Origin: Chloroflexota bacterium
GTDB lineage: Bacteria; Chloroflexota; Dehalococcoidia; Lucifugimonadales; UBA2962
Length of the DNA stretch: 64,000 nucleotides
Reading direction: 5' to 3'
Assembly: GCA_002699485.1 (NCBI GenBank)
Contig: PAAV01000049.1
Coordinates: 61,981-125,980 of the forward strand
Below, piece after piece: positions 17,020-50,314 of the stretch. Position numbers and translations under genes: made by a program. How positions within the stretch are numbered: the first letter of the stretch is position 1; each line of letters starts with the position of its first letter. Under the pieces are notes generated by a model. It did not search any database and was not told the origin of the DNA. It saw only the letters and a program-made list of their open reading frames with translations.

Positions 17020-17048
17020 ATTGTTCTTGAACTACAACTTAAACTTCT

Positions 17049-17401: not shown

Positions 17402-17427
17402 CGTTTGGGAAATTAACAGATAAAGTC

Positions 17428-17571: not shown

Positions 17572-17604
17572 ATTAATATTAATTTTTTAATCTAGTGTAA
17601 TACA

Positions 17605-17964: not shown

Positions 17965-17969
17965 ATGCA

Positions 17970-18179: not shown

Positions 18180-18202
18180 TTGAAAAAAATGGATTTACGC
18201 CT

Positions 18203-27705: not shown

Positions 27706-29160
27706 ATGATTAGGCCTGTTATATTAGCCGGTGGTTCCGGCACAAGGCTTTGGCCATTATCTAGGGAGGATTTTCCCAAGCAATTCCTTAAATTGGCAAC
27801 TGAACACACTATGCTTCAAGACACCGTATTGCGCTTGGATGGACTCAATAGTAACTTCAGTAGTTCTCCTCCAATTGTTATTTGCAATGAACAGCACAGG
27901 TTTCTTATAAATGAGCAACTTAAAGAAATAAAGAGGACGCCGGACGCAACAATACTTGAACCAATCGGTAAGAATACCGCACCGGCTTTAACTCTAGCGG
28001 CTCTTTGGGCTTTAAAAAATGACCAAGATTCGACTTTACTTGCATTGCCAGCAGATCAACATATTGATAAATCAGAAGTTTTTCATAAAGTAGTAAAAGA
28101 AGCTGCAGCCCTTGCTGATCAAGGATGCTTTATAACTTTTGGAGTGCCACCTACTGCACCCGAAACTGGATTTGGTTATATAAAGACGGCACCAATGTTA
28201 GGCAATTTTGAAAATGGTGAGTCAAATGTTATGAAAGTCGCAAAATTTGTGGAAAAACCCAATTTAGAAACCGCGAAGAAATATTTAGATTCAGGGCAAT
28301 ATTTGTGGAATAGTGGAATGTTTATGATGAAGGCGAGTTTATGGATGGACCTTGTAAAAGAATTTCGTCCCGAGATTGGCCAAGCATGTGTTGAAGCATA
28401 TGAAAAAGGTTCAATTGATGGAAATTTTTTCAGACCAGATAAGATCACATTTAGCCAAAGCCCTTCAGATTCCATTGATTATGCTGTTGCTGAAAATATA
28501 GACATAGATCGTGATGATCCATGCTCAGTAGTATTTGAATATAGTGCAGGCTGGTCTGATCTCGGGACATGGACTGCAATAGCAGATAAATTGCCTTCTG
28601 ATGCTGATAATAATGTTATCAAGGGGGATGTTCTGCCAGAGGATGTTTCAAACTCAATAGTTATCTCAGACGGACGTTTATTAGCAGCAGTAGGCCTTGA
28701 TAACGTTGTTATAGTTGAAACTCCTGATGCAATATTAGTAACCTCCAAAGAGAAGATCAATGATATTGGTAAATTGGTTGCAAAAATTCGTACATCAGGT
28801 CGTACCGAACATGCTAAACATCTAAAGTCTCATCGGCCATGGGGTACATATGAGATATTGGATAAAGGACGAGGGTTCCAGGTTAAGCATCTAAGAATTG
28901 AACCCGGACAGTCAATATCATTGCAACGTCACAAACACCGTGCGGAACACTGGGTCGTAGTTAAAGGTAAAGCAAAGGTGATATGTGGCTCAGACACTTA
29001 CGAATTGTTAGAAAATCAATCAACATACGTTCCTCAGGGAGTAAAGCACAGATTACTTAATCATGGAACAGAAATATTGGAAATTGTTGAAGTGCAATCA
29101 GGTGAAGTTATAGATGAAGATGACATAGAACGATTCGAAGATAGTTACGGTCGGGTTTGA
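27706..29160 (+). CDS. manC: Mannose-1-phosphate guanylyltransferase / mannose-6-phosphate isomerase (type II PMI)
   Basis: ILAGGSGTRLWPLSR and a C-terminal cupin (RPWGTYEILD, HRAEHWVVVKG). 484 aa. Confidence 0.9.
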   Translation: MIRPVILAGGSGTRLWPLSREDFPKQFLKLATEHTMLQDTVLRLDGLNSNFSSSPPIVICNEQHRFLINEQLKEIKRTPDATILEPIGKNTAPALTLAALWALKNDQDSTLLALPADQHIDKSEVFHKVVKEAAALADQGCFITFGVPPTAPETGFGYIKTAPMLGNFENGESNVMKVAKFVEKPNLETAKKYLDSGQYLWNSGMFMMKASLWMDLVKEFRPEIGQACVEAYEKGSIDGNFFRPDKITFSQSPSDSIDYAVAENIDIDRDDPCSVVFEYSAGWSDLGTWTAIADKLPSDADNNVIKGDVLPEDVSNSIVISDGRLLAAVGLDNVVIVETPDAILVTSKEKINDIGKLVAKIRTSGRTEHAKHLKSHRPWGTYEILDKGRGFQVKHLRIEPGQSISLQRHKHRAEHWVVVKGKAKVICGSDTYELLENQSTYVPQGVKHRLLNHGTEILEIVEVQSGEVIDEDDIERFEDSYGRV

Positions 29161-30447: not shown

Positions 30448-31278
30448 TTGAATAAGAGTTTAAGTTTAGGCGTGGCGATGATGGTCATCGGGGTAGTTGT
30501 TCTACTGCTTGTTGGTGGCTATTTAATTTTTATCATTAATGAAAAATCAAACTTAGATCAATTAAATGTAAGTTTGAATAATGATGTTATTAATGAAAAC
30601 ATTGCAGTTACTATAGATGAACAGGACAGTAAACAGCTGTCTGTAATTGACCTTCCAGTCCATTTTTCCAATATGCATTTTGGAGTTTTATTCCATCCAA
30701 AATATTGGCATGATCCTATTAAAACTGGAACTGATTTAAGGCAAGCCAGTCACATTGCAGAGGGATTTGAGTTAGCGCCTTCTTTGGATGATGTGTCAAT
30801 GTTTGCCCCAAAAGGCACAGCTGCCAGAATTGTAATACCAATGTTGAATGTTGATTCGCGGGTTGATGAATTAGGAATTATTGATCTTGGCGATAGTAGA
30901 GAATATGAAACCCCCGATAACACAGTAGGACATATTCCTGAGACGGCTGATCCGGGAGAAATAGGGAATGGGTGGTTTTTTGGGCATCTAGAGAGTCCAT
31001 TTAGTGGCGAAGGTAATGTCTTTCGGAGGCTTCCTGAAATACCTGAACTTTTACGTGAAATAAATGAGATTGGAGAGGGAGGGATCGACATAATATTGCA
31101 TAGTAGCACAGGTGAATACCTATATCAGGTTACATCATCAGAAGTATTACATGCCGATGAATTAACTATATATGGATCAGATGATTTCCGTATAAGTCTG
31201 GTTACATGTATTCCCAGGCTTGAATACTCTCATCGTCTCATAATTAAAGCGGTTTTAGTTGGTTTCAGAAATTTTTAG
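30448..31278 (+). CDS. Sortase-family transpeptidase with N-terminal membrane anchor
   Basis: N-terminal TM (GVAMMVIGVVVLLLVGGYLIF), ARIVIPMLNVDSRV, VGHIPETADPGEIGNGWFFGH, the catalytic ISLVTC motif and a downstream Arg (SHRLII). Confidence 0.75.
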   Translation: MNKSLSLGVAMMVIGVVVLLLVGGYLIFIINEKSNLDQLNVSLNNDVINENIAVTIDEQDSKQLSVIDLPVHFSNMHFGVLFHPKYWHDPIKTGTDLRQASHIAEGFELAPSLDDVSMFAPKGTAARIVIPMLNVDSRVDELGIIDLGDSREYETPDNTVGHIPETADPGEIGNGWFFGHLESPFSGEGNVFRRLPEIPELLREINEIGEGGIDIILHSSTGEYLYQVTSSEVLHADELTIYGSDDFRISLVTCIPRLEYSHRLIIKAVLVGFRNF

Positions 31279-32605: not shown

Positions 32606-33508
32606 ATGAAAACCGGACAACCATGGTTCTCAAAGATAAACTCACTGTTTAAGGTTAAAACCCTGAATGATGATATATGGGACGATCTCGAAGAGGCCCT
32701 GATACTATCTGATGTGGGTGTACCTATAGCCTCGGGTCTAATCGACAACGTTAGATCTCAAGTCCAGACAAACGTAATCGATGACCCGGCCGAGGTGTTT
32801 GAGGTTCTAAAGTCCGAAGTAAAGGCTCTTTTATCCCATGATTTAGATTACTCGGCATTAATTAACACTTTTCAACCTTCTAGCAGTAATAATCCTATTG
32901 TGATCTTATTTGTAGGTGTCAATGGAGTAGGCAAGACAACAACTCTTGCGAAAATGGCTCAAATGTATATTGATTCTGGACACAAAGTGATTATTGGGGC
33001 CGCAGATACTTTCAGAGCCGCCGCCATTGACCAGGTCAAAATTTGGGGAGAAAGGTTAAATTCAGATGTAATTGCTCACTCCCATGGCTCAGACCCAAGT
33101 GCGGTTGCTTTTGACACAATCGAGGCAGCAAAGGCTCGCAAAATCGATGTTGTTTTAATTGATACTGCTGGCCGCATGCATAATAGTGTAAATTTGATGG
33201 ATGAGTTGAATAAGATGACTCGAGTAGCTGCAAAAACAGGGATTAGTAAGCCTAAAATACTTCTAGTGTTGGATGCTTCTACTGGTCAAAATGGACTACA
33301 ACAAGCGAGATCCTTTCTTGGTTCCATTGGATGTGATGGAATAGTATTAACAAAGCTCGATGGCAGCTCGAGAGGAGGGGTTATCCTGTCAGTTTACTCT
33401 GAATTTGAAATGCCTGTTTTGTATATAGGAACCGGAGAAAATATCTCAGATTTACAATTATTTGACCCAAATCAATTTGCACAAGATTTATTTTCTGCGC
33501 CTTCATAA
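32606..33508 (+). CDS. ftsY: Signal recognition particle receptor FtsY
   Basis: FVGVNGVGKTTTLAKMA (G1), DTAGRMHN (G3) and LTKLDGSSRGG (G4). 300 aa with a short N-terminal domain. Confidence 0.9.
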   Translation: MKTGQPWFSKINSLFKVKTLNDDIWDDLEEALILSDVGVPIASGLIDNVRSQVQTNVIDDPAEVFEVLKSEVKALLSHDLDYSALINTFQPSSSNNPIVILFVGVNGVGKTTTLAKMAQMYIDSGHKVIIGAADTFRAAAIDQVKIWGERLNSDVIAHSHGSDPSAVAFDTIEAAKARKIDVVLIDTAGRMHNSVNLMDELNKMTRVAAKTGISKPKILLVLDASTGQNGLQQARSFLGSIGCDGIVLTKLDGSSRGGVILSVYSEFEMPVLYIGTGENISDLQLFDPNQFAQDLFSAPS

Positions 33509-33617: not shown

Positions 33618-36005
33618 TTGACTGACCCTTTAATCTGGATCCTCACGATTGAATTTATAGGAATAATTGCGTTTCCTATATCCTTTGTGATATTCAGGTG
33701 GATGCCTGACAGAGGGATTACCCTAGCTATGCCGTTAGGGATAGTTATTGCGGCGTATCTCACTTGGATTTTAAGTTACACTAATGTGGTCTCTGCCAGT
33801 AGGCTTGGACCGGTTTTATCATTAATAATTATAGCTGTTCCATCTATCTACATCAGTTGGAGTCACAGAAAACAAATAATTAACCATCTCCGAAGGCACG
33901 TTTGGTTGATAGCAGTTACACAAGTGATACTTTTGGCGCTATTTTTCTTGTGGACTCTTTATAGGTTTTATGACCCATCAATATCCCATACAGAGCAGCC
34001 AATGGACATGGCTTTCTTAAATGCATCCATGATAACCGAGTTTGCACCACCGGAGGATCCATGGATGAGAGGCGAGTCCATTAGCTATTATTATTTTGGT
34101 TATTGGATAGTGGGTTTTTTCTCTAACTTAGTTAGCACAAAATCAAGCGTTGCTTATAACTTAGCCCTTTCATTAATTCCTGCAATAACATCTGTTGGTG
34201 TAATTGGTTTGGTTTATAACATCATAAAAATTGATGGAGGTAAAATTAAATTTGCCATACTGGCTGGCATAATTTCAACAGTTATCCTTCTAGCAGCGTC
34301 TAATTTTGAGGGAGCACTAGAATTTCTGCGATATAACGGTATTGGAAGTGACTCGTTTTGGAATTGGCTTTCAATTGATGGAATTACTGGACCTGTAACC
34401 AATTTAACAGACAGCTGGAGGCCTACTGAGTTTTGGTGGTGGTGGCGTGCCACGAGAGTTATTAATACTTTTGAAAATGGAGTGGGCTTAGATTATACAA
34501 TTCATGAATTCCCTGTATTTTCTAGCTTACTTGGAGATCTCCATCCACACTTTTTGTCTCTACCTTTCGTAACGCTATTTTTGGGGTTAGTGACAAACTT
34601 TATTTTGAGCCCAATAACTGTTATGCCAGGTCGGTTTTTTATTGGCAATTTACCAGTTCGAAGGGTATTAACCACTTACGTTAGTGCTGTAATAAATAAT
34701 GCCCCACAACTTATTTGTATTGGGTTTATTTTAGGCGCTCTAGGGTTCGTCAATGCCTGGGACTTACCTATATTTGGCTTAGTTTTTGCCGGTGCTGTGT
34801 TATTTAAAATCCATAAAGAACAGAAGCTATCGTTTTCAGGAATTCTCGTTAAAGCCATACCAATTTTCATAATTGTATTTGGAGCAGCGTTTTTACTGTA
34901 TTCCCCATATTATTTTTATTTTCAAAGCCAGTTTTCTGGCTTGGCCCCGGTAACAGACATAACTTCAAGACCGATACATTTTTTCATTGTCTGGGGATTA
35001 TTTATGGTAATACTCGTACCAGTTGTTTTATACGTTTTTTCCAAATCAAAATTAAGACATGGATGGCTGCAAAACGTATGGATATCAATGGCAATTACGA
35101 TGCTACCGTTTCTAGTCTGGTTGATTTTGATTGGATGGACTGGCAGTCCAGAAGTTTCGATACTTAGACGATTCATTAAATTACTACCCATTATGGTCGT
35201 TATATTTATGACAATTTATTCTGCGTTATACCTGCTCAGAGATGGCAGGATAGGAGGAACTAAAACTCTAGGGATATCTGTAACTATGGTTTTGGTTTGT
35301 TCGGCTTTTATATTGATAATGATTCCAGAGCTGATTATCGTTAGTGACCAATTCGGAAGCAGGATGAATACCGTATTTAAATTGTATTATCAAGCATGGA
35401 TTCTCTTATCAATTTCTGCCGGAATTGGAATATACCACGCAGGCTATTTATTAACCAAGTCCAGAGGAATACACAAACTGATTATTGCAAGTTTTGGTGT
35501 TATTTTAGTTCTAATGCTTTCAGTCTCTTTGTATTATGCACCTGCAGCAGCCTTTACCAAAGTTGATACAAGTAATTTCAGAAGCTTAGATGGGTTGGAG
35601 CATATAAAAAACAAAAACCCTGATGAATTAGAGGCGATTAATTTTCTAGTGAGAACATCTGTAAAACATGATGCACTGGTTGAAGCAGTCGGTACTTCAT
35701 ATAGTGAATATGGAAGAATTTCTTCTAGCACAGGGATACCGACAATTCTTGGTTGGCCAGCACATGAAATACAATGGAGAGGATCCGATTTAGGCATTTC
35801 TCAGCGCGCAAATGATGTTGAAAGAATTTATCAGAGTTTAGATCCAACAGAGACATACGGTTTATTGGCCAAGTATAACGTTAGTTATGTATATATTGGG
35901 CCAAGGGAGAGGCGAAAGTATGGAACTAGCGCGCTAAGTAAATTTGAAGGTTTCATGAATAAAGTATTTGATACCGACACTGTGGTCATTTATAAGGTAA
36001 GGTAA
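33618..36005 (+). CDS. DUF2298 / Chlor_Arch_YYY (TIGR03662-like) polytopic membrane protein
   Basis: 795 aa and more than 12 hydrophobic segments. Signature SISYYYFGYW, the upstream HTEQPMDMAFLNASM, and a C-terminal soluble part with ILGWPAHEIQWRG and YVYIGPRERRKYG. Confidence 0.8.
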   Translation: MTDPLIWILTIEFIGIIAFPISFVIFRWMPDRGITLAMPLGIVIAAYLTWILSYTNVVSASRLGPVLSLIIIAVPSIYISWSHRKQIINHLRRHVWLIAVTQVILLALFFLWTLYRFYDPSISHTEQPMDMAFLNASMITEFAPPEDPWMRGESISYYYFGYWIVGFFSNLVSTKSSVAYNLALSLIPAITSVGVIGLVYNIIKIDGGKIKFAILAGIISTVILLAASNFEGALEFLRYNGIGSDSFWNWLSIDGITGPVTNLTDSWRPTEFWWWWRATRVINTFENGVGLDYTIHEFPVFSSLLGDLHPHFLSLPFVTLFLGLVTNFILSPITVMPGRFFIGNLPVRRVLTTYVSAVINNAPQLICIGFILGALGFVNAWDLPIFGLVFAGAVLFKIHKEQKLSFSGILVKAIPIFIIVFGAAFLLYSPYYFYFQSQFSGLAPVTDITSRPIHFFIVWGLFMVILVPVVLYVFSKSKLRHGWLQNVWISMAITMLPFLVWLILIGWTGSPEVSILRRFIKLLPIMVVIFMTIYSALYLLRDGRIGGTKTLGISVTMVLVCSAFILIMIPELIIVSDQFGSRMNTVFKLYYQAWILLSISAGIGIYHAGYLLTKSRGIHKLIIASFGVILVLMLSVSLYYAPAAAFTKVDTSNFRSLDGLEHIKNKNPDELEAINFLVRTSVKHDALVEAVGTSYSEYGRISSSTGIPTILGWPAHEIQWRGSDLGISQRANDVERIYQSLDPTETYGLLAKYNVSYVYIGPRERRKYGTSALSKFEGFMNKVFDTDTVVIYKVR

Positions 36006-36012
36006 ATTCCCT

Positions 36013-38223
36013 TTGTATAAGACGTTAATAACAGAGACTAATATTTTAAAAACTAAGTCACCGATCGGACCATACAGTAAAGGGTTCTTGAACCTAATAA
36101 TTGAAATCTCCAGATTCTTAAAAGTTAATCGAATTGAAGTAACGGCATACGTTGCTTTGCTTATCGTTGCAGGAATAATGCGCTTTTGGAATTTAGGCTC
36201 TAGGGCATTGCATCACGATGAAAGCCTGCATGCGTACTTTTCATGGCAATTATTTGCAGGAAACGGATATCTTCATAATCCAATGATGCATGGCCCGCTT
36301 CAATTCGAACTTAATGCTGCACTTTTTTATATTTTTGGAGTCACAGATTTTACATCAAGGAGTTTATACGCGTTATTCGGGATTTTATTAATTCTTTGCC
36401 CCTTGCTACTTAGAGATAAACTCGGCAGATTGGGTTGCTTTATCACAGCTCTGTTGTTGGCCTTTTCTCCGGCACTACTTTATTTCAGTCGATTTGCAAG
36501 AAACGACATCCTTATGGCTGTTTGGACTTTTGCGTTAATAGCATTTCTATGGAGATATTTGGAATCTGGTAAAAACAGGTATTTGTACGCGACAGCATTT
36601 GCTTTGGCTTTATCATTTTCATCAAAAGAGAGCACATATTTCACAGTAGGTATTCTTTCCATATACTTGGGCTTTGTTTTGATCTTTAGAAACGTACATC
36701 TGATATATAAGCAAAATAATCTTTATGGCGTTCCAATACTTAATGCCATTCTAAAAGTAATCGCCGGGCTGTATAAAAAGCTTATCGAAATTAGATCTCT
36801 CCAAAATATTTCTCGTGAAACATCATTTTTAATTGTGATGTGGACTATATCTTTGCCTCTTTGGTCAGGGTTTATTTCTATTTTTCAGGTTGCTGGCTCG
36901 AATTTAGTACTCGCTTCTGAAAGTGGACCAAATATTGGATCACCAACTGGAGGGGGGTTAGTAATTGCTGGTGTAGTAATAGGAATTTGTTTTTTCGTAG
37001 GCTGTGTGATTGGTCTTCGCTGGAACTGGAGGGCTTGGTTAATATCTGCCCTGATTTTTTATATTCCTTGGATATTATTCCACACCACTTTTTTCGATAA
37101 TCTAAACGGTGTTGGGTCTGGATTGTGGCAGTCTCTTGGTTATTGGGTAGTTCAGCAGGGAGAAAGCAGAGGAAATCAACCCGCATATTACTATTTATTA
37201 ATTACCGCCTTGTATGAGTTTCTTCCATTATTAGTTTCGCTAACAGCCGTTATCTACTACTTTAAAAAGAAAGAAGCATTTGCTAAATTCCTAATATTTT
37301 GGTCTTTGGCAACTTTCTTAATGTATACGATAGCTAGCGAGAAAATGCCCTGGCTTTTGGTCCACATAACCATGCCTTTGATAGTTCTTTCTGGGAAAGT
37401 TTTGGGTGATTATATTAAAACCCAAACTGTCTCAAAATACGTTAATGTGAAAAATATCCCTCTGGCATTACTAACTTTAGCCTTTTTATTTTTTGCTTGG
37501 AGATTGGCATTTTTCGGTATAGATGGCAATGCAGGTAATTTATGGATGTTGGTTTTATTGCTCTCTGGACTGGTTTTAGTGCTATTAGGGTTTGGGTTTT
37601 TACTAAGAGTTGATTTCTATAAAAGCTCTTTAAAGGTGGTTGTTTTAACTATTGTTTTGATTTTATTTGGCTTAACCGTACGGACTGGAGTTATTGCCAC
37701 ATATAAAAATGGCGATATTCCTGTGGAAATGTTGGTTTACACCCAGACTTCGCCTGACGTGCCGTCATTAGCTAGTCATATATCCACATTAGAATTAACA
37801 GGTGGAAGTAAGCCTACTGTGGATGTGGATTCTACCAGCGGGTTCCAATGGCCTTGGGCATGGTATTTAAGAGATATTGCCTTAGCGGGATATCCTCAGT
37901 ATGGTCAACATTTACCTTCTAGCATGATGGAACAGGAAGTCCTAATAATTCACTCTCAAAACAAATTAGCGGTGCAAGAACCTGTAAAAGAAAAATACGG
38001 AGAAGGTATTCGATTTAGACATAGATGGTGGTTTCCGGAACAAACTTATAGGGACCTTAGCTTAAAAAAGATAATTCAATCGATATTTGATCGGTCTGCA
38101 TGGGTAAGATCTATGGATTATTTTCTATATCGTGACCTTAATCATAATTTGTCGAGTGAAGATGCATATGTATACTTTGATGACTCTGAGATGCGAAAAT
38201 TTAGATCCCTTGAATTAGAATAA
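36013..38223 (+). CDS. TIGR03663-like (Agl23-like) GT-C/PMT-like polytopic membrane protein
   Basis: 736 aa. RFWNLGSRALHHDESLHAYFSW and HNPMMHGPLQF in the first loop region, many TM segments, and a C-terminal FQWPWAWYLRD. Starts 7 nt after the DUF2298 gene. Confidence 0.7.
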   Translation: MYKTLITETNILKTKSPIGPYSKGFLNLIIEISRFLKVNRIEVTAYVALLIVAGIMRFWNLGSRALHHDESLHAYFSWQLFAGNGYLHNPMMHGPLQFELNAALFYIFGVTDFTSRSLYALFGILLILCPLLLRDKLGRLGCFITALLLAFSPALLYFSRFARNDILMAVWTFALIAFLWRYLESGKNRYLYATAFALALSFSSKESTYFTVGILSIYLGFVLIFRNVHLIYKQNNLYGVPILNAILKVIAGLYKKLIEIRSLQNISRETSFLIVMWTISLPLWSGFISIFQVAGSNLVLASESGPNIGSPTGGGLVIAGVVIGICFFVGCVIGLRWNWRAWLISALIFYIPWILFHTTFFDNLNGVGSGLWQSLGYWVVQQGESRGNQPAYYYLLITALYEFLPLLVSLTAVIYYFKKKEAFAKFLIFWSLATFLMYTIASEKMPWLLVHITMPLIVLSGKVLGDYIKTQTVSKYVNVKNIPLALLTLAFLFFAWRLAFFGIDGNAGNLWMLVLLLSGLVLVLLGFGFLLRVDFYKSSLKVVVLTIVLILFGLTVRTGVIATYKNGDIPVEMLVYTQTSPDVPSLASHISTLELTGGSKPTVDVDSTSGFQWPWAWYLRDIALAGYPQYGQHLPSSMMEQEVLIIHSQNKLAVQEPVKEKYGEGIRFRHRWWFPEQTYRDLSLKKIIQSIFDRSAWVRSMDYFLYRDLNHNLSSEDAYVYFDDSEMRKFRSLELE

Positions 38224-38324
38224 TTATATTATGTTTTAAATATATGGCTAAATTGTGTAAGGAAATTTGCCAAGCAATTTAAAAGTTCTGAAAGTCTCTT
38301 AACCGAAAAGTATATTCATAAATT

Positions 38325-39392
38325 ATGTTGAATCGTTATAAAACTTGGATTGGAATCGGGCTAACTGCAATTTTGCTCATTGCTTTTCTGCTCACGGTGG
38401 ATGTGGTTAAGATGTTCGACTCTCTTGTTGAGGCTAATTATGTGTTCATCTTACCGGCTATTGCAATGTATTTCATATCACTCCTGTTCAGAACATTGAG
38501 ATGGAAAATGTTATTAACACACATGCAGGATATCAGTATGTCCAGGCTCTATCCGGTTGTGGTCGTAGGATATATGGCCAATAATATTTTGCCAATGAGA
38601 TTGGGTGAATTTGTGAGAAGTTATTACCTCAGAGAGCGTGAGGGAGTAAGTGTGAGTGCTGCATTGGCAACTGTATTTGTTGAACGAGTGATTGATGCTC
38701 TTACATTGTTAATTTTTATTGTGGCAATTGCCTTCATTGTTCCATTGGGAGTGGGTGGGGTTGTCGAAGGATTAGGCGAGAAATCGGGAATTGCATGGCC
38801 ATTAATAGTTTTAGGGGCGACAATTCCATTTATACTCTGTTTCACAGTGTTTATGCTTGTAGCTCGTTACCCTGAATTTACATTGGCAATCACGTCAAAA
38901 ATATTTTCTAGATTCCCAGCCAAGATCAAATTAGTCTTAAATAATCTCGCTGAAACTTTCGTAGTAGGCCTGTCGGCATTAAAAAACCCTCAGTTAATCA
39001 TGGGAATGTTTATTGTTTCTGTTCCGATTTGGCTGTTTGAAGCAGCGCTTTTCTACCTGATCGGAATTTCATTTGACTTCCAAAATCATTTAGGCGGTCA
39101 TGTTAATTTAGCCCTAATTTCTGTTCTAGTGACAGCCATTACTAATATTGGAGCTTCAATTCCTGCTGCACCGGGAGGTATTGGTTTATTTGAAATAATT
39201 GCTCGGGAAACATTGGTTTTAATACCTTTAGGCATAATCGATAGGTCCATAGCTGCTGGATATGCAGCAGTTGTTCATGCTACTTTACTTATACCTATTA
39301 TATTGCTCGGACAGATAATATTGTGGTGGGACAATATATCACTTAATCATTTATGGCTTATGGGTAAAAATAATAAAGAGGATACGGATTGA
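38325..39392 (+). CDS. Flippase-like / lysylphosphatidylglycerol-synthase-TM-domain (UPF0104) membrane protein
   Basis: 8 or more TM segments. FRTLRWKMLL and NILPMRLGEFVRSYYL are typical of UPF0104. Confidence 0.7.
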   Translation: MLNRYKTWIGIGLTAILLIAFLLTVDVVKMFDSLVEANYVFILPAIAMYFISLLFRTLRWKMLLTHMQDISMSRLYPVVVVGYMANNILPMRLGEFVRSYYLREREGVSVSAALATVFVERVIDALTLLIFIVAIAFIVPLGVGGVVEGLGEKSGIAWPLIVLGATIPFILCFTVFMLVARYPEFTLAITSKIFSRFPAKIKLVLNNLAETFVVGLSALKNPQLIMGMFIVSVPIWLFEAALFYLIGISFDFQNHLGGHVNLALISVLVTAITNIGASIPAAPGGIGLFEIIARETLVLIPLGIIDRSIAAGYAAVVHATLLIPIILLGQIILWWDNISLNHLWLMGKNNKEDTD

Positions 39393-40726
39393 AAGTAGGA
39401 ATTATTGGAGCGGGAGCAGCTGGCTTAGCTGCAGCTTATGAATTGGCACTTGCTGGTGTAGAAGTCGTTATATATGAAAAGGCATCATTTGTTGGAGGTC
39501 AAGCGTCAACATTTGATGTTGAATCTACACCTTTAGAACGCGGATATCATCACTTATTTACTTCAGATACTGACATACTATCGTTGATGTCGGAAATTGG
39601 CCTTTCGGATCGTATGGAATGGCATGAGTCTAAAGTTGGCATATTTTATGGTGGGAAAATATTTAATCTTGTTACTCCCCTCGACCTTTTAAAGTTTTCT
39701 CCTTTAAGTATTCTTGATCGAATCCGTATGGGTTTAGTAACAATGATTTTGAAATCAAAAAAGGATTGGAAAGCTCTTGAAAATGTAACTACTGATGAAT
39801 GGATAAAAACTTGGGCCGGTAAAAGAGTCTACGAAGTAGTTTGGGGGCCTCTTTTACGTGGAAAATTTGGAGATCGACATTACAACGAAATAGGCATGCC
39901 ATGGTTTTGGGGAAAAATACATACCAGGTTCGCTTCACGTGGCAAGAATATGGCGAAAGAACTTTTGGGTTATCCTAAAGGGAGTTTTGGCGAAATTTTT
40001 GACACGTTGGCTAAAAAGATTGAGTTAATGGGAGGTACAGTAAGATTATCTACGGGGGTTAAAAAGATAATCATCAAGGAGGGAAAAGCTGTGGGGCTAT
40101 CAATCGAATCCGGATCTGATTCTAAGGAAGAGCTTACTGAAAAATTCGATGCAATCTTGTCTACTACACCTTCATTTGTGTTCCCAAAACTTGTTCCAAA
40201 AATGCCTAAAGAATATGAGAACAGGCTTACAACAGTTCAGTATATGTCAGCAGTGCTCATTATATTAATATTGGACCGCCCCTTGACGAATGTTTATTGG
40301 CTGAACGTTGCTGATCGATCAATACCATTCGTAGGTTTGATAGAACATACTAATATGATAGATTCATCTCTTTATGGCGGCAAACATATTGTTTATTTAT
40401 CTAATTACCTAAATATTGACCATCCGCTTTATCAAATGGATCATAAACAGCTGCTAGCAGAATATCTACCACACATAAAAAAAATTACACCTGAATTCGA
40501 TAAATCTTGGATTGTAAAAACTTACTACCATAAAGTGGGGGCCGCTCAGCCGATCATAGGTGTTAACTATTCGGAGCGTATTCCGGGACATAGGACGCCT
40601 TTTGAAAACCTATATTTAGCAAATACTACTCAAATATACCCTGAGGATAGGGGAACCAACTATTCGGTTCGCATGGGCCGTGATGTAGCAAAACTATTGT
40701 TAAAAGACTATAGTTTGCCAGATTAG
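39389..40726 (+). CDS. NAD(P)/FAD-dependent oxidoreductase (amine-oxidase / phytoene-desaturase / protoporphyrinogen-oxidase fold)
   Basis: KVGIIGAGAAGLAAAYELALAG...VIYEK...GG dinucleotide-binding N-terminus. The TTG start overlaps the upstream stop (TTGA). Confidence 0.75.
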   Translation: MKVGIIGAGAAGLAAAYELALAGVEVVIYEKASFVGGQASTFDVESTPLERGYHHLFTSDTDILSLMSEIGLSDRMEWHESKVGIFYGGKIFNLVTPLDLLKFSPLSILDRIRMGLVTMILKSKKDWKALENVTTDEWIKTWAGKRVYEVVWGPLLRGKFGDRHYNEIGMPWFWGKIHTRFASRGKNMAKELLGYPKGSFGEIFDTLAKKIELMGGTVRLSTGVKKIIIKEGKAVGLSIESGSDSKEELTEKFDAILSTTPSFVFPKLVPKMPKEYENRLTTVQYMSAVLIILILDRPLTNVYWLNVADRSIPFVGLIEHTNMIDSSLYGGKHIVYLSNYLNIDHPLYQMDHKQLLAEYLPHIKKITPEFDKSWIVKTYYHKVGAAQPIIGVNYSERIPGHRTPFENLYLANTTQIYPEDRGTNYSVRMGRDVAKLLLKDYSLPD

Positions 40727-40808: not shown

Positions 40809-41336
40809 TTGCCATCGGATGTAACGCCTAAAATAGGCCCTACGCCAGATTCAGAAAAACAAGACCTCAAAGATCGCATAAATAAAGCGGTAAGGACCCA
40901 GAAGAGGCCGACTGTTACAGTACTATCATCTTTACTATCAATAGAAGATGATTTGGGTTATATCCCGGAAGAAGCGATATCTATAGTTGCCGAATATAAT
41001 GATTCGACTATTAACGAAGTCTGGGGTGTAGCATCCTTTTATCCAAATTTTCGATTTGATCCTCCTTCCAAGAATACTGTTGAAGTTTGTTGGGGACCAT
41101 CTTGTCATTTAGTTGGAGCAACGGAGGTAATTAAGTCTGTTTTGGATGAGTTGGATCTTGACGGAGAAGGAGACACCACAGATAAAATCGTGACGTTCAA
41201 ATTTAATACGTGTTTAGGGGCATGCCCTCAAGCTCCTGTAATGAGTATAAATCATCGAATGTATGGAAAAGTTTCAGCCAAACAAGCTCAATCTCATGTT
41301 TCTTCGTTGAGAGAAAGCGCTAAGGGAGTAAGCTAA
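40809..41336 (+). CDS. nuoE: NuoE/FdsG-like [2Fe-2S] thioredoxin-fold subunit
   Basis: VCWGPSCHLVGA and TCLGACPQAPV (Cx4C...Cx3C). TTG start with AGGAG 9 nt upstream. Confidence 0.8.
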   Translation: MPSDVTPKIGPTPDSEKQDLKDRINKAVRTQKRPTVTVLSSLLSIEDDLGYIPEEAISIVAEYNDSTINEVWGVASFYPNFRFDPPSKNTVEVCWGPSCHLVGATEVIKSVLDELDLDGEGDTTDKIVTFKFNTCLGACPQAPVMSINHRMYGKVSAKQAQSHVSSLRESAKGVS

Positions 41337-43120
41337 TGAGCTCTTATGAAAACCTTAAGACATTAGCTGATTCTAGGTGGTCAGAACTCACAGAGGGAAA
41401 CGTTCCTTGGATCAGAATAGGGATGTCTATGTGCTGCGGCCAAGCCTCTGGAGCATACGAAACACTCGCCGAAATCAAACAGCAGTTAAAGGCAAAAGGA
41501 ATTGAAGCAAATGTGAGTGAGGTTGGATGCCTAGGCATTTGTTACGCATCTCCAGTGGTGGATATTTTATTACCTAAGCAACATCGAGCCGTATATGGAA
41601 ACATAACCGCAGACTTAGTAATGGATTTGATTGACAGATGCTTACTTAAAGGAAAACTTCCTAAGAAAAATCTACTCGGAGTCTTAGATATTGGTGATAC
41701 TAAATTAAACGATTTACCAAATTTCAACGAATTGCCCCAGATCAAACTTCAACACCGAATTGCCCTTCGAAATGCTGGACATATTGATCCTAAAGATATA
41801 TATCAGTACATAGCTCGAGGGGGCTACTTAGGTTTGAATAGATCTTTAACTGATCTTAAACCTGAAGATGTAATTGAAGAGGTTAAATCTTCAGGTTTAA
41901 GAGGACGCGGAGGCGCAGCATTCCCGACGGGCGTGAAGTGGAGCTTTATGACCAGAGGAGAGAAACCAAAGTATATTCTTTGTAACTGCGAAGAGGGTGA
42001 CCCTGGAGCTTTTAATGACAAAGCTATTTTGGAGAGTGATCCTTATACCACGATTGAAGGAATGACTATAGCCGCGTACGCTACAGGCTCTACTAATGGA
42101 ATTATTTTTATAAGACATGGACATGATGGTCCAATAAAAACAACAGAAGACGCAATAAAACAGGCATATGAAGTTGGTTTGCTGGGTCAGAATATACTTG
42201 GATCTGATTTCAGTTTTGATTTAGAGGTGTCATTAACAGGTGAGTCATATGTAGCCGGTGAGGAAACGGCGCTCATGGAGGCAGTTGAAGGTAAAAGATC
42301 AATGCCTAGAGCAAGACCACCTTTCCCAGCAGCATATGGTGTTTGGGGACGCCCAAGCACTATTAATAACGTAAAGTCTCTTTCTTATGCACCTTCCATT
42401 CTTGAAAATGGACCTGAATGGTTTTCATCTATTGGTGTAAATAAAAGTACGGGAACTGCGATTATATGTTTGAGCGGCAACATAAAATATCCTGGTTTAT
42501 ATGAAGTTCCAATGGGTCTTACAATAGGTGAGGTTATTGATGATATTGGTGGAGGGGTTCCTGGTGGCCGTAAGTTAAAAATGTTACAAACTGGAGGACC
42601 TCTCGGAGGGGTCTTAAGTTCGGATTCCCTTGAAATACGCTTAGATTTTGATGAAATGAGAGAAGCCGGAGCGATATTGGGTTCGGGAGGGATAATCGTG
42701 GCTGATGATCGTACTTGTGCCGTTGATCTGACCAGGGTTCTAGTAGCATTTTGCCAATTTGAATCGTGTGGTAAGTGCTTTCCTTGTCGTCTAGGCACTA
42801 CTAATCTGTTAGAGATTGTTGAGCGAATGTCATCTAATAAAGCCAGGATGGGTGATGTTGATTTAATGAAGCAGATTGGACAAACAATGCAAGCAGGCTC
42901 GCTCTGCGGACATGGACAATTAGGCTTCAATCCAATCGAATCAGCAATGAAGCATTTTAAAGAAGATTGGAACGCCTGCGTTGATGATGGAAAGTGTTTG
43001 ACTGGTTCGTGCGACAAACCGTATTTTACCCCAATAAATACGAGGCCATTTGCGGATTCTCCTATAAAAAATGCTGTGCCAATTAATATTGCAAAACAAG
43101 TTGGAGAAAAAAATGAGTGA
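41336..43120 (+). CDS. nuoF: NuoF/FdsB-like NAD(H)-binding FMN/[4Fe-4S] subunit with N-terminal thioredoxin-like extension
   Basis: GLRGRGGAAFPTGVKW (FMN), CNCEEGDPGAFNDK (NADH), and ESCGKCFPCRLGT plus SLCGHGQ (N3 cluster). The start overlaps the upstream stop (TAATG). Confidence 0.85.
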   Translation: MSSYENLKTLADSRWSELTEGNVPWIRIGMSMCCGQASGAYETLAEIKQQLKAKGIEANVSEVGCLGICYASPVVDILLPKQHRAVYGNITADLVMDLIDRCLLKGKLPKKNLLGVLDIGDTKLNDLPNFNELPQIKLQHRIALRNAGHIDPKDIYQYIARGGYLGLNRSLTDLKPEDVIEEVKSSGLRGRGGAAFPTGVKWSFMTRGEKPKYILCNCEEGDPGAFNDKAILESDPYTTIEGMTIAAYATGSTNGIIFIRHGHDGPIKTTEDAIKQAYEVGLLGQNILGSDFSFDLEVSLTGESYVAGEETALMEAVEGKRSMPRARPPFPAAYGVWGRPSTINNVKSLSYAPSILENGPEWFSSIGVNKSTGTAIICLSGNIKYPGLYEVPMGLTIGEVIDDIGGGVPGGRKLKMLQTGGPLGGVLSSDSLEIRLDFDEMREAGAILGSGGIIVADDRTCAVDLTRVLVAFCQFESCGKCFPCRLGTTNLLEIVERMSSNKARMGDVDLMKQIGQTMQAGSLCGHGQLGFNPIESAMKHFKEDWNACVDDGKCLTGSCDKPYFTPINTRPFADSPIKNAVPINIAKQVGEKNE

Positions 43121-45866
43121 AGATCTAGTCATCAATATTGATGGTAAAGAGATTAAAGCGAAACCTGGCCAGATGATTCTTCAGGCAGCAATGGAAGCAG
43201 GCATTTACATTCCCTATCTTTGTTACTATCCCGGTACTAAACCTTTTGGGGCATGTCGTATGTGTGTGGTTACGGTAGATGGAGTGAGAGGTACCCCAGC
43301 ATCCTGCACAACACCGGTGAGCCCAGACATGGTTGTAAAAACCGATACCCCAGAAATTGTTGAACTCCGAAGAGGCATAATGGATTTACTTCTATCGGAA
43401 CATCCGCATGGATGTTTAACATGTCATAGGATTGAGCTATGCGGTCCAACAGATGTATGTTTGCGTCATGTATCAGTAAATGATCGTTGTGTCACTTGCC
43501 CTAAAAATGAGAGATGTGAATTAAAAGACACTGTTCGATGGTTAGAGATGGACATGGAAACACCACTTACATACCAGAATAGGGAGATACCTTTAAAGAC
43601 CGCTGATCCTTTCTGGGATATGGACATGAATTTGTGCATCGTATGTGGCCGTTGTGTAAGAGTGTGTGATGAAATTAGAGGTGATAGCGCATTAACATTT
43701 TTGAATCGAGCAGGGAAAACCGTGATTGGCACATCTCAAGGAACCTCTCTACTTGAATCAGGTTGCGAGTTTTGTGGTGCATGTATAGATGCTTGCCCAA
43801 CAGGAGCATTGGTGGAAAGGGATTATAAATGGGATAAGGCTACAAAAACTGTTGAATCGGTCTGCCCGCATTGCCCCGTTGGATGCACGATGAAGCTTGA
43901 AATAAATAAAAGAGACAAACTTATTCGTGCAATTCCAGATAGTCAGTCTGAAGTTAACAGAGGCCAGTCGTGCTACAAAGGAAAGTTTGGAGTGAACTTT
44001 GTTAATAGCAAACAAAGAATAAAGACTCCAATGATTAGAAGTGAAGGAGAACTAAAGGAAGTAGGTTGGAACGACGCAATTTCATCACTTGCAGAAAAAC
44101 TAAGTGATTACCGGAACAATAACGAATATTATTTGTTATTATCTCCTAGGTCTACCAATGAAGACGCATTTGTTGCGCAAAAATTTGGACGTAGTGTTAT
44201 GGGTACCAATAATGTAAATGTATCTTCTAACATTAGACCTGAATTAGTCGAGTATTTAGGTCAAATGCTTGGTACTTATGCTGGAACCAATCCTATTTGG
44301 GACCTCGAAAAATCCCAAGCATTTTTAGTTGTATCAGCTAATATGACTGAACAGCATAACGTCGCTGCATTACCAATAAAAAAAGCAGTTAAAAACGGAT
44401 CTGATCTTATCGTTATTGATCAGCGCGAGACTGAACTAACGAAAATTTCATCCATCTGGCTTCGACCGAAACCAAATACAGAGGCCGTTTTGATAGGCGC
44501 CATTCTCAAGGTTATTATTGACGAAACTTTAGATGATCATGATTTCATAAATAAAAATACTGTTGATTCCGATCGGATGAGAAAGTCTGTTGTTTCATTC
44601 GACATCGTTAAGGCGGAAGGGATAACTGGAATCGAAGCGGATGAAATAAGGAAAGCAGCGCGTATCCTTGCCAAGGCAAATCCATTGGCTATTCTTTATG
44701 GCCTGGAAACACTTGATGCAGCAGTTAGGCCCGATTGTGTAAAGATGCTCGTAAACCTATCGATGTCTACAGGAAATATAGGTGTTGAAGGTGGGGGTCT
44801 ATATCCATTGTTGAACGGTGCTAATGAACAAGGAGCCAAGGATGCAGGTTGTATGCCTGATAAGTTACCTGGTTATATAAGCATCGATGATGCCCGAAAA
44901 GTGTCAGAATTCGAAAAATTGGTTGGCTTTCCTATCCCTAAAGAAGCAGGATTATCAATAGAAGAGCTGGCTGGCGCAGTTAAGTCTGGTAAGTTGAAAG
45001 CCTTGCATGTGTTAGGAGATAGCCCTTCACTGGTTAATGGAGAGTTAGCTGAACTAGTGAAATTAATAGATAAATTAGAATTGTTGGTTGTACATTCCTC
45101 ACTGGAGAATGAACTGACCGCCAAGGCTGACATGGTTTTTCCGGCGGAAACATTTGCTGAAACGGAAGGGACATACACTAATTTAGAAAGACGAGTACAA
45201 ATTTTGAATTCGGCGACATCTAGAAAGGGATATCAATCTCCGAGCTGGAGTGTTTTGAATCAAGTAGCAAACGAATTAAATGTTAATGGTTTTGAATATC
45301 AGACATCGATGCAGATCTTTGATGAACTTAGGCGTCAGGTTGAAGGTTACAAAGGTATTTCATATGAAAAATTACGAAGTACACAGGGCGTACAATGGCC
45401 ATGTTCGCATAAAGAATCTGATGGACTTTCAATTTTGCACACGGCAAAAGACCCGGATGCCGAACATGGCAAATTTGTGAGTGTAGATCTACAGATGCCT
45501 GCAACTTCAAGAGGCACAAATCATGGCTTTATTTTGGCCGAGGGCCGAGTGCTCTTGCAGTCGGAACGAGAATTTGAACTCGTGAAAAATAATAAGAGAA
45601 ATGAGATATCGCGAGAAGAAATCCTCGAAATGCACCCTTTGGATGCAAAAGGACTAAATCTTAAAGATGGAGATCTTGTTGAGCTTGAAGGTGATGAAAT
45701 AAAATTGAAGTTGAAGGTTCATATCAACGGTATACAGCAAGGGCTAGTTTCAACTACTGAATTGTTTGGCTCTTATGCCGGACGTTTAGATTTAACCTCT
45801 GATCCAGATCCTGTATTAAACGCAAAGAACCTGTCTTTAATTCCTGTTAAATTAAAAACCGTATAA
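43113..45866 (+). CDS. nuoG: NuoG/FdsA-like Fe-S plus molybdopterin-oxidoreductase-fold subunit (formate dehydrogenase alpha-like, active-site Cys/Sec-His not seen)
   Basis: CYYPGTKPFGACRMCVV...C (2Fe-2S), HPHGCLTCHRIELC, CIVCGRCVRVC, CEFCGACIDACP, CPHCPVGCTMK and GQSCYKGKF. I start at ATG 43113 (GGAG upstream, ATGAGTGA overlap with the nuoF-like stop). Confidence 0.8.
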   Translation: MSEDLVINIDGKEIKAKPGQMILQAAMEAGIYIPYLCYYPGTKPFGACRMCVVTVDGVRGTPASCTTPVSPDMVVKTDTPEIVELRRGIMDLLLSEHPHGCLTCHRIELCGPTDVCLRHVSVNDRCVTCPKNERCELKDTVRWLEMDMETPLTYQNREIPLKTADPFWDMDMNLCIVCGRCVRVCDEIRGDSALTFLNRAGKTVIGTSQGTSLLESGCEFCGACIDACPTGALVERDYKWDKATKTVESVCPHCPVGCTMKLEINKRDKLIRAIPDSQSEVNRGQSCYKGKFGVNFVNSKQRIKTPMIRSEGELKEVGWNDAISSLAEKLSDYRNNNEYYLLLSPRSTNEDAFVAQKFGRSVMGTNNVNVSSNIRPELVEYLGQMLGTYAGTNPIWDLEKSQAFLVVSANMTEQHNVAALPIKKAVKNGSDLIVIDQRETELTKISSIWLRPKPNTEAVLIGAILKVIIDETLDDHDFINKNTVDSDRMRKSVVSFDIVKAEGITGIEADEIRKAARILAKANPLAILYGLETLDAAVRPDCVKMLVNLSMSTGNIGVEGGGLYPLLNGANEQGAKDAGCMPDKLPGYISIDDARKVSEFEKLVGFPIPKEAGLSIEELAGAVKSGKLKALHVLGDSPSLVNGELAELVKLIDKLELLVVHSSLENELTAKADMVFPAETFAETEGTYTNLERRVQILNSATSRKGYQSPSWSVLNQVANELNVNGFEYQTSMQIFDELRRQVEGYKGISYEKLRSTQGVQWPCSHKESDGLSILHTAKDPDAEHGKFVSVDLQMPATSRGTNHGFILAEGRVLLQSEREFELVKNNKRNEISREEILEMHPLDAKGLNLKDGDLVELEGDEIKLKLKVHINGIQQGLVSTTELFGSYAGRLDLTSDPDPVLNAKNLSLIPVKLKTV

Positions 45867-50285: not shown

Positions 50286-50314
50286 TCGCATTAAGAAAAC
50301 TAAGAGAGTTATAT

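Follow-up and report, generated by a model that had tools for sequence, protein, structure and literature searches.

A conserved four-gene cluster of Dehalococcoidia combining two predicted GT-C-fold membrane proteins, a candidate flippase and a flavoenzyme

The 64,000-nucleotide stretch of the Chloroflexota contig PAAV01000049.1 analysed here (the window) contains a cluster of four same-strand genes. Two large polytopic membrane proteins, ORF1 of the DUF2298 family and ORF2 of the Agl23 family, are followed by a flippase-like protein, ORF3, and an oxidoreductase dependent on flavin adenine dinucleotide (FAD), ORF4. Both large proteins were predicted to adopt the fold of class C glycosyltransferases (GT-C). 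In the dark ocean, the host lineage, SAR202, is one of the most abundant groups of bacteria. The function that we favour, with a probability that we put at about even, is a glycosylation module of the three-component type that works outside the cytoplasm with a lipid-linked donor in these peptidoglycan-less, S-layer-bearing bacteria. Three-component systems pair a GT-C transferase with a flippase and with a synthase of the polyprenyl-phosphate sugar, and some include auxiliary enzymes for diversifying the donor (PMC11127046). SAR202 and Dehalococcoidales were described as monoderm, without peptidoglycan synthesis and with an S-layer-like coat, and archaella are encoded by SAR202 (PMC10444878, PMC10608941).

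The four-gene cluster

The cluster had the following layout (lengths in amino acids, aa, and nucleotides, nt):

33618-36005, + strand: ORF1, 795 aa, TTG start; DUF2298 / Chlor_Arch_YYY (TIGR03662) polytopic membrane protein
36006-36012, + strand: ORF1-ORF2 junction of 7 nt, read from the sequence; ORF1 TAA at 36003-36005 before it, ORF2 TTG next
36013-38223, + strand: ORF2, 736 aa, TTG start; TIGR03663 (Agl23-family) membrane protein
38224-38324, + strand: ORF2-ORF3 spacer of 101 nt, AT-rich, read from the sequence
38325-39392, + strand: ORF3, 355 aa, ATG start; stand-alone UPF0104 / LPG_synthase_TM, MprF-type flippase domain
39389-40726, + strand: ORF4, 445 aa, TTG start; FAD-dependent oxidoreductase, NF005560/PRK07233

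An earlier note on this DNA had described four same-strand reading frames with a 7-nt gap, a 101-nt gap and a TTGA overlap and had quoted the motifs SISYYYFGYW, LHHDESLHAYFSW and HNPMMHGPLQF; all of these were found again. The TTGA is common to the ORF3 stop codon (TGA, 39390-39392) and the ORF4 start codon (TTG, 39389), and ORF4 is translationally coupled to ORF3. The 7-nt junction tightly couples ORF1 and ORF2 as a core pair. Shine-Dalgarno-like sequences were present 5' of ORF1 (GGAG) and 5' of ORF4 (AAGAGGA). No terminator signal above the shuffled background was detected in the ORF2-ORF3 spacer. Since the counts of the promoter and terminator scan were not above those of shuffled controls, operon boundaries could not be called.

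The profile hidden Markov models TIGR03662, TIGR03663, PF03706 and PF01593, which the earlier note had suggested for a check, all matched the encoded proteins, and the curated cut-offs were passed. The parts belong to named families and are not categorically new; the association of TIGR03662 with TIGR03663 is presumably already mentioned in the TIGRFAMs family descriptions. As the earlier note had supposed, literature searches turned up no experimental description of the four-gene set. We know of no biochemical study of any of the four proteins in bacteria and of no CAZy-type characterisation of the ORF1 and ORF2 families.

Family and fold assignment of the two large membrane proteins

ORF2 matched TIGR03663 with 263.2 bits (cut-off 126.25) and was above the Pfam gathering thresholds of PMT (38.8 bits, threshold 22.7) and PMT_2 (37.6 bits, threshold 26.1). 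Among 105 ORF2 homologues, D69-E70, H93-G94-P95, R57 and R64 were invariant, as were the DE, HGP, YxSRFxRxD and KES motifs. This pattern fits the TIGRFAMs description of the family, which we take to name an invariant N-terminal DE, an HGP and two arginines. The quoted stretches LHHDESLHAYFSW and HNPMMHGPLQF lie within residues 66-98. Based on the helices of the structural model and the positive-inside rule, the basic N-terminus was placed in the cytoplasm and the first transmembrane helix (TM1) at residues 40-58. D69-E70 is positioned at the start of the first juxtamembrane helix (68-81) after TM1, with the invariant HGP next, and an extracytoplasmic domain forms the C-terminus (approximately 566-736). 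The proposed catalytic aspartate occupies the corresponding position in several solved GT-C enzymes (PMC11127046).

AlphaFold2 models of ORF1 and ORF2 were built on alignments of about 100 sequences each. The ORF2 model reached a predicted local distance difference test score (pLDDT) of 88.4 and a predicted TM-score (pTM) of 0.89. All 26 Foldseek matches in the PDB at E<=1e-3 were GT-C proteins (STT3, ArnT, AglB, Pmt4, PglB, ALG12 and ALG9). TM-scores, normalised to the target, were 0.58 for ArnT and 0.61 for ALG12, and the Emb proteins matched more weakly. The GT-C character that the earlier note had read from the first loop of ORF2 was borne out by the DE dyad after TM1 and by the fold matches to ArnT, STT3, PMT and ALG enzymes. 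Judged from sequence and model, ORF2 appears to keep the complete GT-C active-site signature, and both kinds of evidence point to a transferase.

ORF1 matched TIGR03662 with 477.8 bits (cut-off 300.25) over residues 5-795 and PF10060 with 325.6 bits. It fits the family as presumably described in TIGRFAMs, with a YYYxG motif, strong hydrophobicity and a length of 700-900 aa. The sequence SISYYYFGYW corresponds to residues 154-163, and S156-Y157-Y158-Y159-F160-G161 was invariant across 108 ORF1 homologues. For the ORF1 model, with a pLDDT of 87.6 and a pTM of 0.91, all 13 Foldseek matches in the PDB at E<=1e-3 were GT-C proteins (DPY19, AglB, STT3, AftA, PglB and ArnT). The target-normalised TM-score was 0.51 against AftA; the C-terminal domain (approximately 649-795) resembled the globular domain of AglB (3vu0) with a score of 0.55, normalised in the same way. 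As the model matched only GT-C enzymes in the PDB, DUF2298 is likewise assigned to the predicted GT-C-fold families. GT-C-like cores were thus obtained for both large proteins with AlphaFold2 and Foldseek, the outcome for which the earlier note had proposed structure prediction.

For ORF1, the helices of the model combined with the positive-inside rule gave about 16 transmembrane helices with both termini outside. The invariant acidic residues D119, E126, D130, D147, D292, E297 and D577 were predicted to lie in outside loops, and the YYYFG motif and the C-terminal domain were likewise on the predicted outer face. Of the candidate acidic residues, D119, E126, D130 and D147 come after the fourth helix, not the first. 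The earlier note had counted one transferase and one protein without assigned function; with DUF2298 itself a putative GT-C-fold family, the set would instead contain two putative transferases.

Searches of PDB sequences and profiles with ORF1, ORF2, ORF3 and two family alignments gave nothing or chance matches, and the GT-C link is therefore carried by the fold, together with the PMT Pfam match for ORF2. No similarity between the ORF1 and ORF2 families was detected with hhalign, so the two are not recent duplicates. The WWDYG motif was present in neither protein and neither gave an STT3 Pfam match at E<=0.01; neither is therefore an STT3-family oligosaccharyltransferase.

DUF2298 is a large family: clusters at 50% identity yielded 6,832 representatives with E<=1e-3, of which 2,451 reached E<=1e-30. 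Double-length forms were present among these representatives. Examples of double-length or tandem DUF2298 proteins were P0391 (1,722 aa), L131 (6188-13407) and L136 (1084-12817); they were encoded on high-GC (guanine and cytosine), Chloroflexota-like contigs without an adjoining TIGR03663 gene. They fit a two-copy architecture that we take to be part of the TIGRFAMs description. The earlier note had thought the family essentially confined to Archaea and Chloroflexi, which did not hold: plasmid pNP95 of Pseudobutyrivibrio xylanivorans (Firmicutes) encodes a TIGR03662 member (432 bits) within a surface-polysaccharide cluster. This cluster comprises GT2 enzymes, an O-antigen-ligase-family protein, whose gene adjoins that of DUF2298, a DegT aminotransferase and a GtrC-like glucosyltransferase. 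A match to ORF1 on a Halarchaeum plasmid was uninformative, as it consisted of a C-terminal fragment without annotation where the record ends. DUF2298 was nearly absent from the searchable literature and its two mentions were incidental; one of them reports a Chloroflexi genome with DUF2298 beside PMT_2 proteins.

Conservation of gene order

Gene order was analysed in two samples. When each species was represented by a single genome, the scan gave at least 566 stretches coding for relatives of TIGR03663, and the best 80 were analysed. These 80 stretches were all from Dehalococcoidia or SAR202, and the closest homologues were labelled SAR202 cluster or Dehalococcoidia. Gene patterns were scored by tblastn with the window proteins (O1 to O4 for homologues of ORF1 to ORF4):

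O1-O2-O3-O4, colinear: 54/80 loci
O1-O2 only: 5/80 loci
O2-O3-O4: 3/80 loci
O1-O2-O3, array cut by the contig end: 2/80 loci
Solo TIGR03663 paralogue in unrelated context: 16/80 loci

The flanks of the 54 full arrays, in terms of ftsY and a formate dehydrogenase (FDH) set, were distributed as follows:

ftsY (+ strand) and FDH: 29/54
ftsY inverted, no FDH: 8/54
Neither ftsY nor FDH: 8/54
ftsY (+ strand) only: 8/54
FDH only: 1/54

In total, 30 of the 54 full arrays had the FDH set in synteny. Because the flanks differ, the array is not simply carried along by a frozen neighbourhood. O1 adjoined O2 in 59 of the 80 O2-anchored loci. When the reading frames of the 80 loci were clustered, just ftsY, FDH genes, a sortase, a LysR regulator and general metabolic genes recurred as further neighbours.

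The solo genes represent a second TIGR03663 paralogue with approximately 44% identity to ORF2, found in L026 and 15 similar loci (among them L031, L034, L035, L043 and L048). It is flanked by a peptide-type ABC (ATP-binding cassette) transporter upstream and an alpha/beta hydrolase downstream, and no DUF2298, UPF0104 or PRK07233 gene was present nearby.

The second sample consisted of 54 metagenome loci with a GC content of 0.32-0.70, anchored on a divergent low-GC DUF2298 protein with 31% identity to ORF1. Thirty-eight loci extended far enough to include a gene directly after O1, and in 29 of them this gene was O2. Nineteen loci with at least 5.5 kb of downstream sequence were scored for the array: seven, with a GC content of 0.37-0.60, had the full array, six had O1-O2 only, one had O1-O2-O4, and five, all of high GC, had DUF2298 alone.

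Junctions between the genes were tight in the relatives as well. O1 and O2 overlapped by 4 nt in L001 and L003. The exact 4-nt overlap of O3 and O4 was present in 29 of 58 loci, and the junction measured at most 60 nt in 44 of 58. O4 stayed with O1-O2 although O3 was missing in L003, L116 and L124, and O3 stayed although O4 was missing in L002. The site of the O2-O3 spacer is a point of insertions or of O3/O4 loss in other genomes. One Dehalococcoidia lineage carries a molybdopterin-oxidoreductase gene (Oxidored_molyb) between O2 and O3 (L001, 12258-13289); L007, L009, L011 and L012, the last of which is the same genomic region as L001, have O2-O3 spacers of approximately 1.1-1.2 kb, and longer gaps were found in L052, L062 and L064.

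Altogether, the cluster consists of a tight core pair, O1 and O2, and a frequently attached, separable accessory pair, O3 and O4. Of the four-gene machine proposed in the earlier note, the synteny held, with 54 colinear arrays, and the indivisible unit gave way to this arrangement of two pairs.

The candidate flippase ORF3 and the flavoenzyme ORF4

ORF3 matched PF03706 with 161 bits over residues 8-329 of 355 and TIGR00374 with 87 bits. A Pfam scan of ORF3 gave no aminoacyl-PG synthase domain, so the two-domain architecture of MprF was not found. For UPF0104 proteins, a role as flippases of glycolipids or lipid-linked sugars has been predicted, and the archaeal Dol-P-hexose synthase AglD ends in a UPF0104 domain (PMC5898192, PplT preprint, PMC12713373). 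By its sequence family, ORF3 is a candidate flippase for a lipid-linked donor. The family differs from the GtrA/SMR and MATE flippases.

ORF4, the best-conserved protein of the four, matched NF005560/PRK07233 with 491.4 bits (cut-off 252) over residues 1-439 and PF01593 with 114 bits. NF005560 is named merely 'hypothetical protein' in NCBIfam, and no mention of PRK07233 was found in the searched literature. Scores were below the equivalog cut-offs of HpnE (103, cut-off 283), phytoene desaturase (59, cut-off 569), protoporphyrinogen oxidase (56, cut-off 98) and crtI_fam (41, cut-off 238). The best sequence relatives in the PDB were protoporphyrinogen oxidase (PPOX), phytoene desaturase (PDS) and an oxidoreductase of M. 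mazei; UDP-galactopyranose mutase (UGM) was a weaker match (E=5e-5), and the DprE1 model did not match ORF4. The fold of the family is of the amine-oxidase/phytoene-desaturase type.

The context of the family in other phyla was taken from annotated records of plasmids and megaplasmids. Eight replicons encoded relatives of ORF4, with 28-36% identity over 92% of the length. Four proteobacterial relatives were members of NF005560 with 503-548 bits, and a relative from Embleya reached 460 bits. On plasmids of Burkholderia, Agrobacterium, Rhodobacteraceae and Rhizobium (L087-L090, approximately 3400-9700 in each), PRK07233 was part of one conserved six-gene operon in the order UbiA(PRK08238), DprE1-like FAD oxidase, DprE2-like short-chain dehydrogenase/reductase (SDR), second SDR, PRK07233 and GtrA. 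The UbiA(PRK08238) prenyltransferase is related to decaprenyl-phosphate phosphoribosyltransferase. The stop of PRK07233 overlapped the start of GtrA in three of the four operons, and an 8-nt gap was present in Rhizobium tumorigenes. The operon resembles the mycobacterial pathway for the decaprenyl-phospho-arabinose donor with two extra redox enzymes; no description of the role of the extra flavoenzyme was found.

In Embleya sp. NBC_00888 (Actinomycetota), on a stretch that is unannotated in its record (L091, 6663-11700), the PRK07233 gene overlaps an upstream gene for a 325-aa GT2 by 4 nt. The best matches of this GT2 were the polyprenyl-phosphate sugar synthases PgfS and ArnC, each below the cut-off. 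The gene order is DegT aminotransferase, GT2, PRK07233, class-III aminotransferase and two GMC (glucose-methanol-choline) oxidoreductases, with 4-nt overlaps around the flavoenzyme, which suggests a pathway for an amino-sugar or oxidised-sugar lipid-linked donor.

PRK07233 therefore adjoins enzymes or flippases of lipid-linked monosaccharide donors in three phyla, and the genes overlap in most of the cases examined. This context fits lipid-linked sugar donor pathways in general and agrees equally with an action on the sugar and on the lipid tail; the saturation of a polyprenyl carrier, which the earlier note had considered, is a candidate reaction. If ORF4 acted on the sugar, it would parallel DprE1 despite the different fold, in keeping with the reductases and aminotransferases encoded beside PRK07233 in the other phyla. 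An ORF4 acting on the isoprenoid tail would fit its nearest characterised relatives, HpnE, phytoene desaturase and PPOX. Homologues of UbiA, DprE1-like proteins and GtrA were found by tblastn neither in the window nor in 83 loci; generic SDR proteins alone matched, in 7 loci.

Proposed pathway and alternative explanations

For the favoured glycosylation module, we infer the following course, including the nature of the sugar, carrier and acceptor and any physical complex. A synthase with its gene at another site of the genome would produce a polyprenyl-phosphate-linked monosaccharide at the cytoplasmic face. ORF4, at the cytoplasmic membrane surface with ORF3, would then modify the lipid-linked donor, either by oxidising the sugar, as DprE1 does with a different fold, or by altering the isoprenoid tail. 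The donor would be flipped to the outer leaflet by ORF3. ORF1 and ORF2, acting as a heteromeric pair or in successive steps, would finally transfer the sugar onto surface acceptors, which may be proteins (of the S-layer, archaellin or others that are secreted) or a glycan or lipoglycan of the surface.

Several points weigh against this proposal. The sole characterised member of TIGR03663, HhAgl23 of Haloarcula hispanica, was reported as a flippase, not a transferase (PMC11182771). PDB searches gave no sequence or profile link of ORF1 to solved GT-C proteins; its GT-C assignment comes from the predicted structure, and several acidic residues are candidates for its catalytic residue. The global Foldseek TM-scores were modest (0.3-0.6). 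Many O1-O2 loci occur without O3 and O4, and the O2-O3 interval can hold other genes. The full-array synteny comes from one phylum, as the genome scan, the metagenome scan and the cluster labels were all from Chloroflexota. A polyprenyl-phosphate sugar synthase of the GT2 or UbiA type was not present in the 64-kb window and did not recur in the 80 related loci, so the pathway is incomplete as encoded here.

The separability of the two pairs raises the question of whether they are unrelated modules that happen to be neighbours. O1 and O2 would then serve surface glycosylation, and O3 and O4 would form a membrane-lipid module, for example for a desaturated or oxidised isoprenoid or a phospholipid that needs flipping; their adjacency would reflect a conserved housekeeping neighbourhood of membrane biogenesis, with ftsY and yidC nearby. 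We regard this as fairly unlikely. It agrees with the 101-nt spacer between the pairs, with the genes found between O2 and O3 in several genomes, with the O1-O2 loci lacking O3/O4 (5/80 and 6/19) and the O2-O3-O4 loci lacking O1 (3/80), and with the housekeeping character of the surrounding window. The closest characterised relatives of ORF4 (HpnE, phytoene desaturase, PPOX) act on isoprenoids or tetrapyrroles, and UPF0104 proteins were also proposed as phospholipid translocases. However, the four-gene order outlasts differing flanks, including the inversion of ftsY and the loss of FDH, and O4 remains with O1-O2 after the loss of O3. In two other phyla, PRK07233 is located inside lipid-linked-sugar operons, not membrane-lipid operons.

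The flippase report on Agl23 leads to a second alternative. The earlier note had traced Agl23 to Haloferax; the protein that gave TIGR03663 its name was in fact characterised in Haloarcula hispanica, as a putative hexose-P-dolichol flippase (PMC11182771). A yeast rft1 deletion is suppressed by HhAgl23, which in purified form translocates M5GN2-PP-dolichol in liposomes (PMC11182771), and TIGR03663 carries the NCBIfam label 'flippase activity-associated'. ORF2 might accordingly be a flippase or scramblase for lipid-linked glycans like HhAgl23, with ORF1 as the sole transferase and ORF3 flipping a different lipid, a division of tasks that suits the AglB, STT3 and PglB folds among the top matches of ORF1 and its AglB-like C-terminal domain. 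We consider it quite unlikely. The invariant DE after TM1, the conserved basic residues and the large conserved extracytoplasmic domain of ORF2 are hard to explain for a scramblase, the cluster already has the flippase-like ORF3, and ORF1 lacks the WWDYG motif and an STT3 Pfam match.

A haloarchaeal relative bears on the same question. The annotated Agl23 of Halogeometricum borinquense pHBOR02 (TIGR03663, 319 bits) has 36% identity to ORF2 over residues 45-207, and the DE, HGP, YxSRFxRxD and KES motifs are common to both proteins. Its gene has a 4-nt overlap with a downstream GtrA-family gene (L084, 9974-12345), i.e. this Agl23 is itself coupled to a flippase gene. In the classical GtrA/GtrB/GtrC system, the flippase is proposed to be GtrA, and Agl23 beside it therefore takes the GT-C slot. 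A GT-C transferase supplied by GtrA would fit the arrangement better than a flippase acting on its own. Two GH18 chitinase-family genes are located nearby, and no DUF2298 was found within 10 kb in this one haloarchaeal locus examined.

Relation to known systems

The proposed glycosylation module is most readily compared with the Gtr system (GtrA/GtrB/GtrC) of Shigella and Salmonella, with ArnC/ArnEF/ArnT and with the Citrobacter pentofuranose system (GT136), in all of which a GT-C enzyme acts outside on a polyprenyl-phosphate monosaccharide (PMC11127046). The operon-encoded flippase, for which ORF3 is the candidate here, and the optional auxiliary enzymes that diversify the donor are further likenesses (PMC11127046). 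Unlike these systems, the SAR202 cluster has no donor synthase gene, its flippase candidate is a UPF0104 protein and not of the GtrA/SMR or MATE type, it encodes two GT-C proteins, and its auxiliary enzyme is an amine-oxidase-fold flavoprotein and not an SDR epimerase. The label 'archaeal-style' used in the earlier note is weaker than claimed: lipid-linked glycosylation of this kind finds its nearest analogy in the bacterial and archaeal three-component scheme, with the synthase not at the locus.

The mycobacterial arabinan locus, which we take to comprise Rv3789 (GtrA-like), DprE1, DprE2, AftA and EmbCAB, follows a similar logic, with a flippase-like protein, a FAD enzyme acting on a lipid-linked sugar and multiple GT-C transferases. 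ORF1 matches AftA structurally, and the proteobacterial PRK07233 genes are within operons of the DprE1/DprE2/UbiA/GtrA type. Unlike in this locus, the fold of ORF4 differs from that of DprE1, no DprE2-like reductase or UbiA phosphoribosyltransferase was found, and there is no evidence of arabinose. The weakest of the alternatives, that the GT-C pair polymerises or branches a wall-replacing polysaccharide or lipoglycan in the manner of mycobacterial Emb, Aft and Mpt instead of glycosylating proteins, is very unlikely in our estimate: it draws on the AftA match of ORF1 and the weaker Emb matches of ORF2, the PRK07233 context in Pseudomonadota that mirrors the decaprenyl-phospho-arabinose donor pathway, the peptidoglycan-less host and the Pseudobutyrivibrio DUF2298 beside an O-antigen-ligase-family gene, but UbiA, DprE1-like and DprE2-like genes are absent from the window and the 83 related loci, and genes for primer or backbone synthesis are not nearby. 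It differs from the favoured module in the acceptor alone, and the present data do not separate the two.

Similarities to archaeal glycosylation concern Agl23 of Haloarcula hispanica and the archaeal AglD/AglR/AglS logic. ORF2 is in the same NCBIfam family as Agl23 and shares the invariant N-terminal motifs, and the UPF0104 domain fused in AglD is the domain of ORF3. In contrast, the identity to haloarchaeal Agl23 lies within the first ~200 residues, and the C-terminal half of ORF2 is different and longer. The haloarchaeal gene is coupled to GtrA and, unlike ORF2, has no DUF2298 within 10 kb. STT3, AglB and PglB were top Foldseek matches of both models, and ORF1 has a C-terminal domain similar to the globular domain of AglB; differences are the lack of an STT3 Pfam match, of WWDYG and of profile similarity, and approximately three extra N-terminal transmembrane helices in ORF1.

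HpnL is a UPF0104 protein and a predicted flippase of a glycosylated lipid. HpnE is a precedent for an amine-oxidase-fold enzyme acting on an isoprenoid lipid. In the GpgSDF/HexSDF glycolipid operons, the UPF0104 protein GpgF is the predicted flippase of a glycosylated lipid (PMC12713373). Unlike in these HpnE/HpnL and GpgSDF/HexSDF cases, no squalene, hopanoid, GT4 or deacetylase genes are near the SAR202 cluster, and ORF4 is below the HpnE cut-off.

Genomic surroundings

Upstream, the cluster is flanked by ftsY (32606-33508). Directly downstream is a formate dehydrogenase set of the NuoE/NuoF/FdhA type, NAD-linked by its FdhA-like member (40809-45866, + strand), which is followed by an NAD_binding_1 reductase (45972-46754). 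The mechanically called reading frames of the NuoF-like and FdhA-like genes share 50 nt (43071-43120), and the true fdhA start is therefore probably further downstream. The window has a GC content of approximately 38-40%. Its remaining genes are of the housekeeping type (Phe-, Ser- and His-tRNA synthetases, yidC/jag, mutS, relA, prfA/prmC and queuosine genes), together with typical SAR202 oxidoreductases. GT2, UbiA-type and isoprenoid genes were not found in the 64-kb window, and Rfam and tRNA scans detected no RNA genes in it.

The gene manC (27706-29160) is 4.5 kb upstream of the cluster, the distance given in the earlier note. The functional link that had been drawn from it is not backed by gene order, as four genes intervene: an amidohydrolase, a sortase, a divergent LysR regulator on the opposite strand, and ftsY. 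Based on this gene order and the opposite-strand regulator, manC was rejected as a member of the system.

The sortase-domain protein (30448-31278, + strand) matched PF04203 with 58 bits and the class E sortase model with 31 bits (cut-off 160). About 21 related genomes have this gene at the syntenic position upstream of the cluster; peptidoglycan is reported to be lacking in the lineage. As a speculative possibility, sortase substrates might be attached to the product of the neighbouring glycosylation cluster. Adjacent genes for a D-glutamate cyclase (PF07286) and a protein with a D-glutamate-cyclase-like C-terminal domain (PF14336) are present at 49491-51169 (+ strand), again in a host said to lack peptidoglycan. 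Two SelA/DgaE-like, pyridoxal-phosphate-dependent enzymes are encoded at 2890-4029 (+ strand) and 25246-26403 (- strand), the second adjoining an F420-type luciferase-like oxidoreductase (26428-27438). The pair appears typical of the paralogue expansion in SAR202 and unrelated to the cluster. A region of approximately 1.2 kb (17020-18202) had no reading frame of at least 120 aa on either strand and no Rfam or tRNA match.

Significance

Four results are new. DUF2298, a large orphan family, is assigned to the GT-C fold on the basis of structural models. The Agl23 family appears to keep the GT-C active-site signature and takes the GT-C slot beside GtrA, which is a testable challenge to its 'flippase-associated' annotation. 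The four-gene architecture in Dehalococcoidia was quantified. PRK07233 was linked across phyla to genes for lipid-linked sugars, and its occurrence in genetically tractable Proteobacteria offers a quick route to the chemistry of the flavoenzyme.

A broader view, which we put forward tentatively and hold to be on the doubtful side, is that DUF2298 and TIGR03663 form an unrecognised GT-C pair and the principal surface-glycosylation machine of wall-less, S-layer-coated Dehalococcoidia, in place of an oligosaccharyltransferase or a wall-polymer synthase. The 'flippase' label of Agl23 would then describe a side activity of a transferase. PRK07233 would stand for a new class of flavoenzymes, spread over several phyla, whose members alter polyprenyl-phosphate-linked sugar donors or the carrier itself while physically associated with the flippase of the donor, which would be UPF0104 in Chloroflexota and GtrA in Pseudomonadota. 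For the biology of the organism, the cluster is a conserved candidate for envelope machinery in SAR202, in which peptidoglycan is lacking as in Dehalococcoides.

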